Shown one piece after another: positions 7,783 to 25,277 of a DNA stretch of 61,509 nucleotides (positions are counted from its first letter, which is position 1; each line of letters starts with the position of its first letter). This DNA is from a virus. Taxonomy: Duplodnaviria > Caudoviricetes. The notes under the pieces are model-generated. The model ran no database searches and was not told where the DNA came from. It worked only from the letters and a program-made list of their open reading frames with translations. The translations under genes were made by a program, and so were the position numbers. The stretch is from IMG/VR virus record IMGVR_UViG_3300036766_001627, positions 1-61,509 of that record; one strand, 5' to 3'.

Positions 7783-8217
7783 ATGCCGCTTACGATAACC
7801 CAAGCCCGAGACGAAATCCTCGGTGTCCTCAAGTCCGCCATCGACGGGAGCAATTCGTACAAAAATACCCCCATCGTCTACGACGATGCCGAGGAGAGCA
7901 TCCCCACGGACGTGCGGACCTCCTGGATCAGAGCCACGATGAGGCACGCTACGGGCGTTCAGGCTACACTGGGAGCTGCTTCGGGCAAGGCCCGCTACAA
8001 CAGGACAGGCACACTGGCTGTCCAGGTATTTACGCCCCTGTCCGGTGGGAACGTGACTTCAGATGCTTTGGCCACTATAATCTTGCAGGCATACCAGAAC
8101 GCCCCTTCTGTGGGCGGTGCCTGGTACAGTCGGTTCGACTTCAAGGAGCTGGGACGAGATCGAGGATGGAATCTGACTCTCGTGCTGATTAGTTTCGACT
8201 ACGACGAGTTGGTTTGA
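7783..8217 (+). CDS. Tail terminator-like protein
   Basis: 144 aa immediately before tail tube; WIR...RYNRTG.L.VQVFTP..G motif. Confidence 0.7.
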   Translation: MPLTITQARDEILGVLKSAIDGSNSYKNTPIVYDDAEESIPTDVRTSWIRATMRHATGVQATLGAASGKARYNRTGTLAVQVFTPLSGGNVTSDALATIILQAYQNAPSVGGAWYSRFDFKELGRDRGWNLTLVLISFDYDELV

Positions 8218-19217: not shown

Positions 19218-19493
19218 ATGGAAAAGTCTGAGGAAAAACCGGAGCGTCTGAGTCACGACGACATCGAAGAGATCGCCACCAGGGTCGTTCGGCGGGTGTT
19301 TCTGGAAATGGGCATCGACGCGAGCACGCCGCTGGCAGCTCAGCAGGACTTCGCCTTCATGCGGAATCTAAGACGTGGTTTCGAGAGCACGAAGCGAACA
19401 GCCCGGACCACGGCTGTGGGAATCTTCGTTACGACGATCCTGACGTTGCTTCTATGGGCGATAAAACAGGCCATCAAGGGAGAGATGAAGTGA
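19218..19493 (+). CDS. Small membrane protein (holin/hemolysin-like candidate)
   Basis: Single C-terminal transmembrane segment; located after the tail genes. Confidence 0.5.
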   Translation: MEKSEEKPERLSHDDIEEIATRVVRRVFLEMGIDASTPLAAQQDFAFMRNLRRGFESTKRTARTTAVGIFVTTILTLLLWAIKQAIKGEMK

Positions 19494-21097
19494 AGACATC
19501 AGAGAAATTCGCCACGGATGCTGTTGATGTACAGATCATGGAAGCCATAGATGTAGTCGGCACGGGACTCACTGACCTGTCCAGAGAGACAGGACTGAGT
19601 CGTTCTACGATCTACTACCGCCTCAAGAAGATGGGCGCCGATAAGCCGATCAGCGCAGGCTCTATCCGCGGCACGGCGGAGAAGTCCGCAGAGCTACCGA
19701 AGCCAGGCAGAATCAAGCGGTACATCCTCACCTCCGCCCAGAACAACACGAAGATACACGAGGCGGTCTGGGAGAGCCTCCTCACGCTGGCGAAATACTA
19801 CGACGCCGCGATCCTGATCGGCACCTTCAGCTACAACCAGAACGCCTTCGGGTCTATGGCTACGAAGCGGGGCACGGAGAAGCACGATAAAGACCTGTGG
19901 TACGACGAGCGGCTCAAACCGTACTTCGCGGATGAGCGGATAAGGCTAGCCGAGGGCCTCGTATGGTGTGGCGAGATGAATATCATGCCCACGGCCGAGA
20001 ACCCGCTGAGTGGTCTGGAAACCTACAGCGGCCGTAAGAGTGCCATCGTGCCGCACGCGAAGATCGCCATGCAGTCCGTCGCCGCCATGAAGGGCGAGGG
20101 AGTGAAGTTCAACTACACGACAGGCACTGTCACGCAGATGAACTACATCCAGAAGAAGGCCGGTCAGAAGGGCGAGCACCACCACACTTACGGTGGACTG
20201 CTTGTCGAGGTGAATGCGGACGGAGCCTGGTTCGTGCGGCAGATCGAGGCGACGAAGGAGGGGGTTATATGCGACTTGGACATCCGCGTCGAGGGCACCA
20301 AGCTCACACGGAAGAACAGGGTTGAAGCGATAACCTGGGGTGACATCCACGCAGCCTGCGTGGATGAGAACGTCACGACCTCGGCTCTCGGAGCCGATGG
20401 CATGATGGACACTCTCAAACCTCGCTACTCGTTCATCCACGATATCTTCGAGGGTGTGTCTTTCAGCCACCACACGGCTGACAACTGCCACGCGAAATTC
20501 TCAGCTCACCTGCGTGGTTACGACTCGGTACAGTGTGAAGTTAATACGACCGCTCATGTTCTCAGTTCTTATCTACGGAAGCTCACTCAAACTGTAGTCG
20601 TAGACAGCAACCACGACAGCGCCTGGCTTGCTCGCTGGTTGCGTGAGCACGACTACCGACGTGATCCGGTGAATGCGGTGTTCTTCCTGCAGATGCAACT
20701 CGCCTTCTACGAAGCGATGGAGAGGAAAGAGAAGCTGAACCTGACGAGGTGGGCACTCCAGATTTTTCCTCGACAGCTCGGAGAGGTGAAGTTCCTCGGG
20801 CCAGACGAGTCCTTCCGCACCTGTGGCGGCCTTATCGAGAACGGACAACACGGGCACCTCGGGCCGAACGGCGCCCGCGGTACGGCCCAGAACCTCAACA
20901 GGGTTGGCCGCAGGGCGAATACGGCCCACAGTCACAGCGCGGCCATCGTGAACGGCCTATATGTCGCCGGCACGAGCAGCGATCTGGATATGGGCTACAA
21001 TGTCGGCCCCTCGTCTTGGTCCCACAGCCACATCATCACATACCCTACTGGCAAGAGAACCATCATTACTGTCTGGGATGGGCGGTGGAGAGCATGA
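19490..21097 (+). CDS. HTH-fused metallophosphoesterase-like protein
   Basis: N-terminal HTH (LSRETGLSRSTIYYRL); GDIH, HD, SNHD, HGH and HSH calcineurin-like motifs. Confidence 0.7.
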   Translation: MKTSEKFATDAVDVQIMEAIDVVGTGLTDLSRETGLSRSTIYYRLKKMGADKPISAGSIRGTAEKSAELPKPGRIKRYILTSAQNNTKIHEAVWESLLTLAKYYDAAILIGTFSYNQNAFGSMATKRGTEKHDKDLWYDERLKPYFADERIRLAEGLVWCGEMNIMPTAENPLSGLETYSGRKSAIVPHAKIAMQSVAAMKGEGVKFNYTTGTVTQMNYIQKKAGQKGEHHHTYGGLLVEVNADGAWFVRQIEATKEGVICDLDIRVEGTKLTRKNRVEAITWGDIHAACVDENVTTSALGADGMMDTLKPRYSFIHDIFEGVSFSHHTADNCHAKFSAHLRGYDSVQCEVNTTAHVLSSYLRKLTQTVVVDSNHDSAWLARWLREHDYRRDPVNAVFFLQMQLAFYEAMERKEKLNLTRWALQIFPRQLGEVKFLGPDESFRTCGGLIENGQHGHLGPNGARGTAQNLNRVGRRANTAHSHSAAIVNGLYVAGTSSDLDMGYNVGPSSWSHSHIITYPTGKRTIITVWDGRWRA

Positions 21098-21341: not shown

Positions 21342-21917
21342 ATGTTCTGGATCATCGTTCTAGTCGCGGTCGTGTTTGTCGTCGGAGTTCTGTTCGCCCG
21401 CAAGAACAAGGCATTCGCGTTCGAGGTCGTCCGCATCCCCAACGGTCTCGCCTTGGGTAGTGGCCACGAGACGATCCAGTCGGCTGATGCGAATCCGATG
21501 AATGTCCTCTACGAGATTCTCACAGACCCCGACAGGGGACTCGGTTTCGCCGCCGCTGATATCGACACGACCGCCTTCGCGGCCGCTGCGGATGTGCTCT
21601 GGTCGGAAGACAACGGGTTCTCGATGATCCTGGATAGCCACAGCACGGCCGGCGACCTCATCAAAGAGATCGAGCGCCAGATCGAGGGAATTGTCTTCGT
21701 TGACCGCACAACTGGCAAGTGGACGATCAAGCTAGTCCGGGCGGATTATACACTCGGTTCCATGCCGGCGATAGATGAGACGAACATCAAGGAGGTGAGG
21801 GACTTCGCCCGCAAGAACAAGGCGAAGGCCAACGCTATCGCCGGCGCCGCCGATTCTGCGAAGGCCGCGGTGTCGAATGAGTACAATAAGTTGACAACGA
21901 AGCCCCCGGTCAAGTAA
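21342..21917 (+). CDS. Small membrane protein with in-frame insertion of a tail-tip gene segment
   Basis: N-terminal TM; 21407-21812 is about 92% identical to 16877-17282. Confidence 0.7.
   Translation: MFWIIVLVAVVFVVGVLFARKNKAFAFEVVRIPNGLALGSGHETIQSADANPMNVLYEILTDPDRGLGFAAADIDTTAFAAAADVLWSEDNGFSMILDSHSTAGDLIKEIERQIEGIVFVDRTTGKWTIKLVRADYTLGSMPAIDETNIKEVRDFARKNKAKANAIAGAADSAKAAVSNEYNKLTTKPPVK
21393..21823 (+). repeat. Duplicated tail-tip segment flanked by a 20-bp direct repeat TTCGCCCGCAAGAACAAGGC
   Basis: Repeat copies at 21393-21412 and 21804-21823; about 31 substitutions versus the tail gene (manual count). Confidence 0.9.
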
Positions 21918-21948
21918 ACTGGCTCATGCTCCTAGAAAGGAGGACACA

Positions 21949-22047
21949 GTGGCAAGCAAGAAACAACTGGCCGCCCGCGCAAAGTTCATTGCGATGGTCA
22001 AGGCCAAGAACCACGGCAAGAGTGGTAAGATGAAGAAGGGCAAGTAG
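21949..22047 (+). CDS. Very small Lys-rich protein (32 aa; not in ORF track)
   Basis: AAAGGAGG RBS, GTG start, MASKKQLAARAKFIAMVKAKNHGKSGKMKKGK, followed by a terminator. Confidence 0.65.
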   Translation: MASKKQLAARAKFIAMVKAKNHGKSGKMKKGK

Positions 22048-22090
22048 GTGGGGTCTTTGTTCGATCTAGGGAACAGGCCCCACTTTTTCT
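22048..22090 (+). terminator. Intrinsic terminator
   Basis: GTGGGGTCT..TGTTC/GAACAGGCCCCAC stem followed by TTTTT. Confidence 0.7.
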
Positions 22091-22102
22091 TGGAGAGAGC
22101 TT

Positions 22103-22762
22103 GTGGTCTATAAATGCGCTGATAGTGTAGAGGCTGCACGTCCCCCTATCCAGGTGGAAGGAGAAGGTTCGATCCCTATCTCAGCGCTTGATCTTAGGTT
22201 TGTAGAGATCAACATGCGAGAAGCAAAGGTTCTGAACGAGACCTGGCACAGCATGTTGCCGAGAACCGATCTTGGTAATCTTCTCTGTGGGAGCATCTCT
22301 GTCGCATACGCTGCGGAGTACGGGGGCAAATTTCTTGGTGTCGCCATCTTTAGTCAGCCCATCGTCAGGAGCTTATGTGATGGGCGAACAATTGAGTTGA
22401 GAAGACTGGCTTTGGGGCCGGATGCCCCCAAAAATTCTGCCTCCAGGATGATGGCAGTTACGGCCAGACTTGTGAAGCGGAAGTATAGGTGGATCAACAA
22501 GATCGTCAGCTACCAAGCCGTAGACGTTCATGCGGGAACCATCTACAGAGCGGCGGGATGGACTCCCGTGGGAAAAGTTGTTCCTGCTCGTCCCCAGAGG
22601 ATGAAAGGCAGCAAGCAGAGAGCCACAGGACCTCTCCAGACACACAGCCGAAAACTACGGTGGGAGAAGATCATAGGAACGGATGCCTATGTTCCTGAAG
22701 AGGGAGAGACAACAGAGAGAATCAGAAATCTTCTTCTGACTTCAAACGGAAAGAACGCATGA
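22103..22762 (+). CDS. Mom-like (GNAT fold) DNA adenine hypermodification enzyme
   Basis: ELRRLAL..APKNSASR, VSY..DVHAGTIYRAAGW motifs of the Mom/XF1762-like family. Confidence 0.75.
   Translation: MVYKCADSVEAARPPIQVEGEGSIPISALDLRFVEINMREAKVLNETWHSMLPRTDLGNLLCGSISVAYAAEYGGKFLGVAIFSQPIVRSLCDGRTIELRRLALGPDAPKNSASRMMAVTARLVKRKYRWINKIVSYQAVDVHAGTIYRAAGWTPVGKVVPARPQRMKGSKQRATGPLQTHSRKLRWEKIIGTDAYVPEEGETTERIRNLLLTSNGKNA
22116..22188 (+). ncRNA. tRNA-Gly-like cloverleaf within the 5' end of the Mom-like gene
   Basis: Acceptor GCGCTGA/TCAGCGC; D stem GTGT/GCAC; 8-nt anticodon loop CTATCCAG; TTCGATC T-loop; U discriminator; no encoded CCA. Confidence 0.65.
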
Positions 22763-22947
22763 AGAAGCTGAACACAAACCTCGTCTTCCACGGCCTCCCT
22801 GTCTTCCTGGAGGTGCCGGACGACTTCGTCTCAGAGCAGGCGATCCTCCGTGCTTTCCACGCGCACCTCGACCGGGTAGAGAATGTATTTCTGAAGAAAG
22901 AGATTGTGTCTGGTACTTTCCCTCGCCTGGCCGAGGACAGTAGATGA
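22759..22947 (+). CDS. Hypothetical protein
   Basis: Fills the gap between neighbours with ATGA overlaps on both sides. Confidence 0.5.
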   Translation: MKKLNTNLVFHGLPVFLEVPDDFVSEQAILRAFHAHLDRVENVFLKKEIVSGTFPRLAEDSR

Positions 22948-24413
22948 GCATCACATTCAAGACGAAGCCTTTTCCACACCAACTCGCCGAGTTCGAGCTG
23001 AGCCGAAACCTGCCTGCTCGTGCCCTCTTCTTCGAGATGGGTCTCGGGAAATCATTCTGCGCAATTGTAAACGCCGCACACCTCTACGCGGAGGGTAAGA
23101 TCACAGGGATGCTCGTCGTCGCACCCAGCGGTGTCCACCGGAACTGGGTAGACGCGGAGATACCGGCGCACATGCCCGATGATACGATGGCAGATACCAT
23201 CGCTCTCGCCTACAATACGAACAAGGCGGATACGCGGGCACATCAGGCGGCTGTCCACAACCTGACCACGAGAGCGGGTTTCTCTGTCCTCTCCATGAGC
23301 TACGACGGCCTCCTCACCGCCCGCGGCAAGCAGACAGTCTGGGACTTCCTCCGGCGCCGGCCCTCCATGTACGTTGTCGATGAGGGCCGGCGGATCAAGA
23401 ACCCGAAGGCGAAACGGACGAAAGCCGTCATCGGGTCAGGCAAATTTGCCCCATACCGGCGGCTTCTTAATGGGACCCCGATCAGCAACGGGCCTTTTGA
23501 TCTCTACAGCCAGATGCTGTTCCTGGATGCCGATTTCTGGAAACCCCTAGGCGTCAGCAGCGAGTGGGGATTCCGCAACTACTTCGGTTCTTTCAAGACG
23601 AGCTATGTCAGGGTGGCTGGAGGCGCCATGAGGGAGTTCAAGGAACTCATAGAGTACCGGAACCTCGATATCCTCAAGACGTATCTAGACAAGGCGGGGA
23701 AGCGGCTGACGAAGGAGGAGGTACTTGATCTCCCGCCCAAGTTGTACTCAACAATCAAGTTCACCCTCGCGCCGGCGCAGCAGGCAGCATACGATCAGAT
23801 GGTAGAAGAATACAGAACGGTCCTCGCCTCCGGCGAGGAGGTTGATGCCGAACTGGCCATCGTGCGGATGCTACGTCTGCAACAGATCACGTCCGGCTAC
23901 CTGCCCACGCCGGACGGCCGGGAACCCTACGAGGACATCGGTGCCACAAACCCCCGCATCACAACCATACTCGACCTGTGCGAAGATGTCCCGCACAGCG
24001 CGATCATCTGGTGCCGGTTTAGACGGACGATAGATAAGCTGTGCGCAGCCCTCGGCACAGATGCTGTGCGGTACGACGGGCTTATCACTGACGAAGATGA
24101 GGCGGCGGAGGCTGTGCGGGCCTTCCAGGCAGGCGAGAAGAAGTTCTTCGTATCAAATCCGGCCAAAGGAGGCGAAGGACTCACGCTCCACCGGGCGAGA
24201 ACAGTGATCCGGGCCGAGAACAGCTACAACCTGGCCGAACGCCTCCAATCCGATGACCGGGCGCACCGGATCGGGCAGAAGTTCAGCGTCCAGTACATAG
24301 ATGTGTGCGGTGCCGACACAGTCGATGAGCGGGTTGCCGAGTGTCTCCGTAAGAAGCAGGATGTGGCCAACATCATCACGGGAGACCGGAAGTTGACAAG
24401 CTGGCTTCTGTGA
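22944..24413 (+). CDS. SNF2-family helicase
   Basis: EMGLGKS, VVDEG, LNGTP, GEGLTL, QSDDRAHRIGQ motifs. Confidence 0.92.
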   Translation: MSITFKTKPFPHQLAEFELSRNLPARALFFEMGLGKSFCAIVNAAHLYAEGKITGMLVVAPSGVHRNWVDAEIPAHMPDDTMADTIALAYNTNKADTRAHQAAVHNLTTRAGFSVLSMSYDGLLTARGKQTVWDFLRRRPSMYVVDEGRRIKNPKAKRTKAVIGSGKFAPYRRLLNGTPISNGPFDLYSQMLFLDADFWKPLGVSSEWGFRNYFGSFKTSYVRVAGGAMREFKELIEYRNLDILKTYLDKAGKRLTKEEVLDLPPKLYSTIKFTLAPAQQAAYDQMVEEYRTVLASGEEVDAELAIVRMLRLQQITSGYLPTPDGREPYEDIGATNPRITTILDLCEDVPHSAIIWCRFRRTIDKLCAALGTDAVRYDGLITDEDEAAEAVRAFQAGEKKFFVSNPAKGGEGLTLHRARTVIRAENSYNLAERLQSDDRAHRIGQKFSVQYIDVCGADTVDERVAECLRKKQDVANIITGDRKLTSWLL

Positions 24414-25041: not shown

Positions 25042-25114
25042 TGCGGGGTAGATCAGTTGGTAGATCGCAAGGCTCATAACCTTGAAGTCGCTGGTTCGAG
25101 TCCAGCCCCCGCAT
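25042..25114 (+). tRNA. tRNA-Met(CAT), initiator-like
   Basis: Cloverleaf TGCGGGG/CCCCGCA, CTCATAA anticodon loop, GGTTCGAGTCC; preceded by TTGACA-17-TATACT. Confidence 0.9.
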
Positions 25115-25277
25115 CTAGGCCGGTAGCCTCATGCGAAGAGGCACTATCCCGCTTCAAAAAAGAAGCGTGTTAGTTAAGAAGGACTCGCAACCTCCCGGTC
25201 TTCTTATGCCCCACCGACATTCTCGGTGGCATCCGGGCACACCGGCGGATGTAAATGGTCCGGCACAAGGAATACTT

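Follow-up and report, generated by a model that had tools for sequence, protein, structure and literature searches.

A phage gene for a Mom-family DNA modification enzyme probably carries its own tRNA-Gly-like donor RNA in its first codons

The DNA analyzed here is IMG/VR record IMGVR_UViG_3300036766_001627 (Duplodnaviria; Caudoviricetes), a complete virus of 61,509 bp with direct terminal repeats; its full length, positions 1 to 61,509, is called the window below. On its plus strand an open reading frame (ORF) at 22103-22762 encodes a Mom-family protein, and codons 5-29 of this gene, translated in frame as ADSVEAARPPIQVEGEGSIPISA, also form a 73-nucleotide (nt) cloverleaf resembling a glycine transfer RNA (tRNA-Gly), which extends from G1 to U73 (22116-22188, plus strand). 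Judged from sequence comparisons, more than a hundred related phage genes have conserved this element. The comparisons demonstrate that the RNA fold is selected, that the region is translated and that the element travels with Mom genes, and we propose that the gene probably carries its own donor RNA for Mom.

The first enzyme shown to modify DNA with a charged tRNA was Mom, in 2026. Mom of phage Mu takes glycine from Gly-tRNA-Gly and attaches it to adenine N6 in double-stranded DNA, after which an on-base rearrangement follows; the reaction needs the terminal riboadenosine of Gly-tRNA-Gly, and the enzyme probably reads the acceptor end (Silva et al. 2026, excerpts of PMC13219725). The initial annotation of the window had tentatively named Gly-tRNA(Gly) as the donor of Mom, and these excerpts bear this out. 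Some 9,600 homologues of Mom are reported in the same study.

The features of the gene and of the element in the window are as follows.

22092..22095, plus strand: Shine-Dalgarno-like GGAG, 7 nt before the GTG start (sequence reading)
22103..22762, plus strand: Mom-family GNAT gene of 219 codons with a GTG start (ORF list, Pfam, phrog and fold match)
22116..22122, plus strand: 5' strand of the acceptor stem (G1 C2 G3 C4 U5 G6 A7), forming 7 perfect pairs with 22181-22187
22125..22139, plus strand: D arm, a 4-pair stem GUGU/GCAC with a 7-nt loop AGAGGCU containing G18 and G19
22141..22158, plus strand: anticodon arm, a 5-pair stem UCCCC/GUGGA with one C.U mismatch and the loop CUAUCCAG
22163..22180, plus strand: T arm, stem GAAGG/CCU(A)UC with a bulged A at 22178 and the canonical loop UUCGAUC
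22181..22188, plus strand: 3' strand of the acceptor stem and discriminator U73 (22188), with UGA next

The acceptor stem thus opens with G1-C72, C2-G71 and G3-C70, and UCC at 22149-22151 lies within the 8-nt anticodon loop. The cloverleaf, the acceptor pairs, U73, the TCC, the 8-nt loop and the bulged T stem had all been described in the initial annotation, and each of these details is correct by sequence reading.

To the gene product Pfam assigns PF25680 (Mom) with 48.3 bits at a cut-off of 27.1, and it matches phrog_1384 with E 3.1e-20. The top PDB match of its AlphaFold model in Foldseek is 8bv8_B, the crystal structure of Mu Mom S124A (E 3e-7, TM 0.59/0.64); a PDB sequence search with the same protein gave nothing at E <=0.01. 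The essential residues R111 and S124 of Mu Mom align with R101 and S114 of the window protein, which are invariant among 35 homologues (alignment A1). The membership in the Mom family, presumed at the outset, is confirmed by these matches.

Relatives' DNA was gathered from IMG/VR, genome contigs and metagenome contigs; a scan of IMG/VR with the single protein gave no relatives, whereas an alignment-based scan did. Two of the 65 loci that were obtained in addition to the window (loci are designated by L and a number) had short upstream sequences (L037 and L060) and one had no anchor motif, and these three were dropped. The remaining 63 sources represent 53 distinct 5' regions, 43 of which, below called set 1, have the cloverleaf at the same place (42 distinct rows in alignment A2). 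Ten regions in which no cloverleaf coding for the N-terminus was seen by eye were left out of the alignment (L011-L015, L046, L052, L053, L056 and L059), and a later search with a covariance model agreed that these loci have no embedded cloverleaf. Covariation was scored on a plain MAFFT alignment that had not been fitted to the structure, using the cloverleaf drawn from the window.

Across the four stems 97.5% of the 882 cells of set 1 are paired, and two-sided changes occur in 12 of the 21 pairs (78 cells). None of 500 shuffles reached any of the five measures, and in controls with the partners moved by 1-3 columns pairing was 41-49%. The acceptor helix is paired in 99.7% of cells and covaries at pairs 4-69 and 5-68; the D helix is paired in 95.2% of cells and has two-sided changes in two of its four pairs; covariation is also seen in four of the five anticodon-helix pairs and in three of the five pairs of the T helix, which is paired in 100% of cells. 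The bulged A of the T stem, located between positions 63 and 64, is invariant (42/42 rows), and so are C35, C36 and A37. Two pairs of tertiary partners change together as well: at 18/55, 31 rows have G/U and six have A/G, with none mixed and one more A/G row read by eye as column-shifted, and at 8/14, 36 rows have U/A and three have A/U. At 19/56, G/C is kept in 40 of 42 rows. We infer that the elbow and core contacts G18-U55, G19-C56 and U8-A14 are present.

Part of the compensation alters the protein. Pair 4-69 joins base 2 of codon 6 to base 1 of codon 28, and residues 6/28 are Ala/Ala in 23 rows, Gly/Pro in four, Val/Thr in two and Glu/Ser in one, which yields C-G, G-C, U-A and A-U, respectively; counting one additional Ala/Val row (C-G), 31 of the 34 rows in which both residues are present allow pairing. 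Immediately before Ala6, 31 of 34 rows have Arg, Ser, Cys or Gly, and the codon of this residue is NGC in 42 of 43 DNA loci, so that G1 and C2 are kept. The entropy at third codon positions is 0.84 bits in the element and 1.57 bits in the Mom domain, or 0.77 vs 1.53 if only codons of conserved amino acids are counted. Because the stems and the tertiary pairs covary and the third-position entropy is reduced, these comparisons indicate that the RNA fold, including the contacts of the L-shape, is under selection. The possibility, raised in the initial annotation, that homologues conserve the peptide and no compensatory base pairs is contradicted by compensation in all four stems and in two tertiary pairs.

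A second collection (set 2) was obtained by searching IMG/VR with a degenerate 26-nt pattern of the T arm and the 3' acceptor strand and comprises 80 of the 89 matching stretches; five distinct elements are common to both sets. The covariance model built from set 1 found a full-length element in 80/80 of these loci (46-95 bits), its one further match being an ordinary tRNA with the CAU anticodon in L163 (38 bits). The set-2 alignment (A3) was fitted to the model, with the T arm and the 3' acceptor strand fixed by the pattern, and the independent parts are the D and anticodon stems and the 5' acceptor strand. Two-sided changes occur in 9/9 pairs of the D and anticodon stems, including all four D-stem pairs, and 98.5% of cells are paired. 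The anticodon loop has 8 nt in 54 of the 66 distinct elements, with the consensus Y-N-U-U-C-C-A-R. Since the bases at the two ends of the nominal 8-nt loop covary, being U-A or C-G (the latter in the window), the anticodon arm is better drawn as six pairs with a 6-nt loop N-U-U-C-C-A.

Downstream of the element, an in-frame ORF of at least 140 amino acids (aa) is present in 70 of the 80 set-2 loci. Of 65 distinct in-frame ORFs, 64 match Pfam Mom, and the match to the profile begins 2-3 residues after the element. The mean column identity of the set-2 Mom proteins is 28%, and the RNA is much better conserved than the enzymes encoded downstream of it. Overall, a Mom gene accompanies the element in nearly every locus with enough sequence.

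Taken by itself, the window copy is marginal, and it is the comparison of homologues that settles the reality of the element. Applied to the window, ARAGORN made no call at the element, its single call being a tRNA-Met (CAT) at 25042-25115, about 2.9 kb downstream. The Rfam tRNA family (RF00005) scored the element at 20.6 bits, below the gathering threshold of 29 (E 0.098 for 501 nt and 4227 families). The minimum free energy (MFE) of the window element is -25.6 kcal/mol (z -1.53), 17 of 200 shuffled sequences fold equally well, and the bulged T arm is absent from the MFE structure. Four arms, a 7-bp acceptor stem and a discriminator are present, as in a canonical tRNA, whereas a 7-nt anticodon loop and a regular 5-bp T stem are not. 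The set-1 covariance model gives 77.1 bits for the window copy, which is itself one of the training rows, and 19 bits for the tRNA-Met, which is therefore a tRNA of a different kind. In 23 of the 43 set-1 loci ARAGORN calls the element at its exact coordinates, mostly as tRNA-???, and in two loci with a 7-nt anticodon loop (L029 and L057) as tRNA-Gly(tcc).

The sub-threshold score of the window copy, the start that a database gene caller assigned to the protein at Met38 (P0001, 182 aa) and a 'PLF...P.S' peptide remnant that persists in relatives after loss of the fold would fit a locus with no RNA feature at all, that is, a conserved N-terminal peptide whose coding sequence resembles a tRNA, or an overrun of the gene caller through an upstream tRNA gene. 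We consider this extremely improbable. The peptide-only version is refuted by the compensation that alters amino acids, by the tertiary covariation and by the suppressed synonymous variation described above, and the overrun by the reading frame.

The frame through the element is open in 43/43 set-1 loci, and in 42 of them an in-frame start lies 4-22 nt upstream of G1, most commonly an ATG at 10 or 13 nt. In set 2, complete cases, in which the frame is open, a start lies upstream and 140 codons or more follow, number 61; in 59 of them the start lies 4-19 nt upstream of G1, and the element is 73 (52 cases), 70 (five) or 76 nt (four) long and has no other length. Insertions keep the frame, with 3 nt added to the anticodon loop in L002, L004 and L062 and to the D loop in L041. 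In L029 (339-411) and L057 (762-834) the D loop has gained 1 nt and the anticodon loop has lost 1 nt, which keeps the frame and results in a canonical 7-nt loop. The eight codons after the element vary chiefly at third positions and form strand beta-1 in the AlphaFold model (residues 32-36 in the window protein, for which disorder is predicted at residues 1-21). The element region is translated, so far as this can be judged from sequence, and the dual coding proposed in the initial annotation agrees with the open frames and the three permitted lengths.

The GTG at 22103 is the sole in-frame ATG, GTG or TTG between the upstream stop codon and the element. Met38 was considered as the true start or as a start used after processing and was rejected: it cannot be the start because strand beta-1 precedes it and would be deleted, codon 38 is not a start codon in several loci (GCC in L007, GTC in L009), and in other Mom subfamilies no Met is conserved downstream of the element. 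The position of beta-1, the non-start codons at position 38, the frame-keeping changes in L029 and L057, the open frames and the restricted lengths are all at variance with an overrun.

In some subfamilies a stop codon is located just before G1 and the only in-frame ATG lies inside the D loop, and in some families the 5' strand of the acceptor stem contains GGAG. The folded element must block initiation, because the start codon adjoins it or lies in it. This arrangement, together with the close spacing of starts in both sets, would suit a tRNA mimic that acts in cis and is never charged, controlling the translation or stability of mom in the manner of the thrS operator, either by hiding the start or as a decoy for Mom, glycyl-tRNA synthetase (GlyRS) or a tRNA-binding protein. 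Also in line with such control, mom of phage Mu is tightly regulated, the Mu record annotates Com as the translational regulator of Mom, and expression of mom is toxic. We regard a purely cis-acting mimic as unlikely, though the least so of the rival readings, in view of the identity positions, the 3' end and the relocated copies considered next.

Among the 42 set-1 rows, G1-C72 is kept in 42, C2-G71 in 40 and G3-C70 in 41, whereas the adjacent pairs 4-69 and 5-68 change freely; U73 is invariant, like C35 and C36. The determinants of bacterial tRNA-Gly are G1-C72, C2-G71, (G3-C70), U73, C35 and C36, and U73 shields Gly-tRNA-Gly from the deacylase DTD and is read, together with G71, by the GNAT toxin TacT (excerpts of PMC9976931). 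The acceptor pairs, U73 and the anticodon CC, named in the initial annotation as the bacterial tRNA-Gly identity set, match the list in these excerpts. Among 49 reference tRNAs from two metagenome-assembled genomes (MAGs), whose sequences were read by eye, the combination of GCG...CGC and U73 occurs only in tRNA-Gly.

CCA follows U73 in 51 of the 66 distinct set-2 elements. C74 is the third base of a Leu codon, and this codon is CTC in 45 of 56 ORFs, compared with 7.6% CTC among the 785 other Leu codons of these ORFs (binomial p 3.5e-40, shared ancestry uncorrected). The residue after this Leu is Gln or His, which supplies CA, in 51 of the 56 ORFs. The pattern argues that the 3' CCA is selected at a synonymous site.

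RNase P recognizes a tRNA-shaped fold with stacked acceptor and T arms, and tRNA-like t-elements that shape the ends of mRNAs exist. The element might thus be a processing signal only, of the plant-mitochondrial 't-elements' type, at which a cut by RNase P or RNase Z sets or destroys the ends of the mom mRNA and in this way times or limits expression, the RNA released having no additional function; by its geometry, cleavage at G1 would remove the Shine-Dalgarno sequence and the start codon. Such a role would leave unexplained the invariant C35-C36-A37 and U73, the kept pairs G1-C72 to G3-C70, the selected CCA and the association with an enzyme that consumes Gly-tRNA (Mom in 64 of 65 ORFs), and we find it improbable.

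The location of the element within the gene is not fixed. In a FastTree tree of the Mom domain, which has no support values and serves as a rough guide only, four or more lineages in which the embedded fold has decayed are nested among lineages that have it. The three decayed lineages with enough upstream sequence (L046, L052 and L053) all keep a copy elsewhere, and U73, the anticodon CC and the bulged A are retained in each. A free-standing copy in L046 (82 bits) is followed by an ORF of the 226-232-aa family and then by mom; in L053 a free-standing copy that scores 57.5 bits, and 31.8 bits with the Rfam tRNA model, and is called tRNA-Gly(ccc) by ARAGORN, precedes the inserted ORF and mom; and L052 has a second copy just upstream (59.8 bits), the 3' half of which is read in a different frame. 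A free-standing copy is also found in L152, 20 nt before a separate Mom ORF, and in L170 the element forms the 3' end of the Mom ORF. L099 (774-844 as oriented; 561-631 of the locus, minus strand) has a free-standing element with CCA and a shortened anticodon arm, flanked by a consensus sigma-70 promoter (TTGACA-17-TATAAT) and an intrinsic terminator consisting of a hairpin and a U-run.

A cultured phage carries the element as well. A blastn search of cultured phages with a 76-nt element gave no match at E <=0.001; a protein search followed by the covariance model led to Psychrobacter phage vB_PmaS_Y8A, in which two tandem, unannotated copies without a D arm directly follow a Mom-like gene (L187 2156-2220 and 2228-2293; OQ059336.1 ~7786-7850 and ~7858-7923). 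They sit between this gene, annotated as 'hypothetical protein', and the terminase small subunit gene. Each copy has the GCG...CGC acceptor, U73, CCA, the bulged T stem and the UUCC loop, and they score 31.7 and 27.4 bits with the covariance model; ARAGORN and Rfam found nothing at these positions. This phage is a ready experimental system. A covariance-model search of Corynebacterium phage Darwin found no element.

Copies kept away from the mom start (L046, L053, L170, vB_PmaS_Y8A and L099) are difficult to reconcile with a cis-acting mimic. Position at the ribosome-binding region, as required for a mechanism of the thrS type, is not maintained overall, although the window element does abut the start. 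Selection for the 3' CCA at a synonymous site would also be unexpected, and the tertiary pairs of the L-shape and the full set of GlyRS identity positions exceed the needs of a protein-binding hairpin. Because of the positional freedom, the retention of the element when uncoupled from the coding sequence and the selected 3' CCA, we lean towards a carrier acting in trans rather than an mRNA decoy.

Phages commonly carry tRNAs, the window itself has the tRNA-Met at 25042-25115, and classical +1 frameshift suppressors are tRNA-Gly with 8-nt anticodon loops. The element could in principle be a working decoder, possibly a +1 suppressor, or an anti-defence tRNA, acting as decoy or replacement where host toxins attack tRNA-Gly, and in either case overlapping mom by chance; GNAT toxins such as TacT do target Gly-tRNA-Gly (excerpts of PMC9976931). 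However, affinity for EF-Tu is set by the T-stem pairs 49-65, 50-64 and 51-63 (excerpts of PMC7826273), and it is at these pairs that the stem is bulged, invariably so even in copies that are not at a mom start. By analogy, the conserved bulge between positions 63 and 64 may weaken EF-Tu binding. Several copies lack a D arm, and the near-constant company of Mom would not be shown by a general decoder. We therefore deem a role in decoding or anti-defence highly unlikely.

We give somewhat better than even credence to the reading in which the element is processed into a glycylated tRNA that takes no part in translation and acts as a private donor for Mom. The 73 nt would then specify both an N-terminal tail of the enzyme, disordered for the most part, and a specialized tRNA-Gly-like RNA. 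Some transcripts would fold into the cloverleaf, RNase P would cut at G1, and the 3' end would be trimmed, with the CCA end either already encoded or added by the host. Host GlyRS would charge this RNA via G1-C72, C2-G71, G3-C70, U73, C35 and C36, the bulged T stem and the off-size anticodon loop would keep the charged RNA from EF-Tu and the ribosome, so that its glycine is reserved for Mom, and Mom would move this glycine to adenine N6 in phage DNA, a chemistry demonstrated for Mu Mom only. Because the start codon abuts G1 (7-19 nt 5' of it, or in some families within the D loop), translation of Mom and folding or cleavage of the element would be mutually exclusive for each transcript, and the latter would also limit enzyme production. 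More speculatively, and with less than even confidence, we envisage a transcript with two exclusive fates, either the mRNA of Mom or a private glycyl-tRNA that evades EF-Tu and is used by Mom only, in which tRNA maturation acts as an off-switch for a potentially toxic enzyme and sets the ratio of enzyme to donor; the enzyme and its co-substrate RNA would together constitute a mobile, self-sufficient cassette for DNA hypermodification.

Several observations weigh against a private donor. That the RNA is processed and charged, escapes EF-Tu and is used by Mom is what we infer; a look-up of sequencing runs gave none of RNA for the window. The off-size anticodon loop or the bulged T stem could disturb RNase P, GlyRS or CCA addition as readily as EF-Tu. 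A start codon as close to G1 as in most loci would be equally in keeping with translational control purely in cis. In the window U73 is followed by UGA, so that CCA is not encoded, and CCA is encoded in only four of the 42 set-1 elements. The difference between the two sets in this respect might, as a guess, track the presence of CCA in the tRNA genes of the hosts; in the two MAGs that carry set-1 relatives, the reference tRNA genes are mostly without CCA (read by eye). Global similarity to the 49 reference tRNAs does not single out glycine, the top matches of the 43 elements being Gly (13), Val (11), Lys (10), Thr (6), Arg (2) and Glu (1), and for this reason the amino acid was typed from the identity positions. 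The contig of L099 (28,972 bp, 83% complete) contains no Pfam Mom match. Finally, Mu Mom accepts all three E. coli tRNA-Gly isoacceptors and rejects Gly-tRNA-Ala (excerpts of PMC13219725), and covariance-model searches found no element in or near mom of phage Mu or in the distant Mom clade L011-L016; the chemistry can therefore proceed without a private tRNA.

Upstream of the gene one further feature lies close to the mom start.

22046..22089, plus strand: terminator-like strong hairpin followed by UUUUU (MFE -25.6 kcal/mol, z -2.82; 2 of 200 shuffles as good)

This hairpin, which a simple terminator scan did not list, closes a short upstream unit (21891-22089) composed of a promoter-like TTGACA-18-TAAACT (10/12), a very basic short ORF (~21950-22049) and the hairpin itself. 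Because the hairpin ends 13 nt before the mom start, expression of mom may depend on read-through. Further upstream, a 191-aa ORF (21342-21917) matches only internal positions 194-335 of the 1405 positions of a tail-protein PHROG and may be a fragment or a small domain protein, and a homologue of a DNA-transfer protein (phrog_1745) is located at 19454-21097. A SNF2-type helicase gene follows mom (22944-24413), and its DNA resembles that of ~60 kb Pseudomonas and Bordetella siphoviruses (64-70% identity). An origin of the element as an attachment-site remnant of a host tRNA was considered and rejected, given that the whole tRNA is present, that its stems covary and that the record is complete with terminal repeats.

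Two observations concern the neighborhoods of the relocated copies. The 226-232-aa ORF family (L046 352-1029, L053 82-777 and 10 further loci) has no Pfam match and occurs on either flank of Mom-like genes, in the manner of a mobile insertion; as it matches no Pfam family and is found on either side of mom elsewhere, it was rejected as a tRNA-handling partner. In L052 the gene upstream of the mom-like gene (54-1409) encodes a family-A DNA polymerase with an intein containing a LAGLIDADG domain.

In summary, a dedicated tRNA-Gly-like RNA is present in a large and diverse set of Mom genes of uncultured phages and in at least one cultured phage, mostly in the first codons of the enzyme, and explains the conserved but disordered N-terminal tail of the proteins that these genes encode. 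If it is a donor RNA, it would be the second known tRNA reserved for non-ribosomal aminoacyl transfer, after the staphylococcal cell-wall tRNAs, and the first such case in a virus, as well as a rare instance of long, conserved dual coding of an RNA gene and a protein in the same strand and frame, across Mom subfamilies with ~20-28% protein identity. The pattern of covariation, in which the acceptor end with U73, the T arm and the UUCCA loop are kept and the D arm is dispensable, offers a handle on tRNA recognition by Mom. It is also a warning for annotation, as tRNA finders and gene callers both mishandle these loci. Our literature search found the element nowhere described; the supplementary alignments and similarity network of Silva et al., which could show the N-terminal extension, lay outside this search, and the words 'tRNA-like', 'mimic' and 'cloverleaf' are absent from the main text of PMC13219725 and from its preprint. 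We know of no precedent for an in-frame overlap with the gene of the client enzyme across very divergent subfamilies of Mom.

Among known systems, Mu Mom belongs to the same family as the window protein, as seen from Pfam Mom, the fold of 8bv8 and the equivalents of R111 and S124, but uses host tRNAs, has no element in or near its gene and is translated under the control of Com. The thrS operator, the 3' tRNA-like structures (TLS) of plant viruses and mitochondrial t-elements share with the element a tRNA-shaped fold within a longer transcript. These tRNA-like folds are recognized by tRNA-handling proteins and lie in untranslated regions or at RNA ends, whereas the element is translated, is located at the 5' coding end and matches the co-substrate of the encoded protein. 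The +1 suppressor tRNA-Gly of the sufD type likewise have an extra anticodon-loop base on a tRNA-Gly body; they are mutant decoders with normal T arms, in contrast to the paired loop ends and bulged T stem of the element and the absence of a D arm from some of its copies.

A close likeness is also seen to the tRNA-Gly NP1-3 of S. aureus and S. epidermidis, the donors for FmhB, FemA and FemB, which, like the element, are extra tRNA-Gly with the UCC anticodon. In S. aureus EF-Tu sequesters ordinary Gly-tRNA, and the Fem transferases are fed by these non-proteogenic (NP) tRNA-Gly with a weak T stem and a UGC T loop, which are charged by GlyRS, bind EF-Tu and the ribosome poorly and serve a GNAT-fold Gly-tRNA enzyme (excerpts of PMC7826273). 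A disturbed T stem is found in all our elements and a UGC T loop in seven of the 42 set-1 elements; together with the intact glycine identity positions and the non-decoding anticodon loop, this follows the logic of the NP tRNA-Gly. The NP tRNA-Gly are stand-alone chromosomal genes with regular stems and a role in the cell wall. The window copy and most of its homologues are instead embedded in a gene, free-standing copies being a minority; the element is phage-borne, overlaps in frame with its presumed client enzyme, combines a bulge in the T stem with an anticodon loop of irregular size and would act in the modification of DNA.

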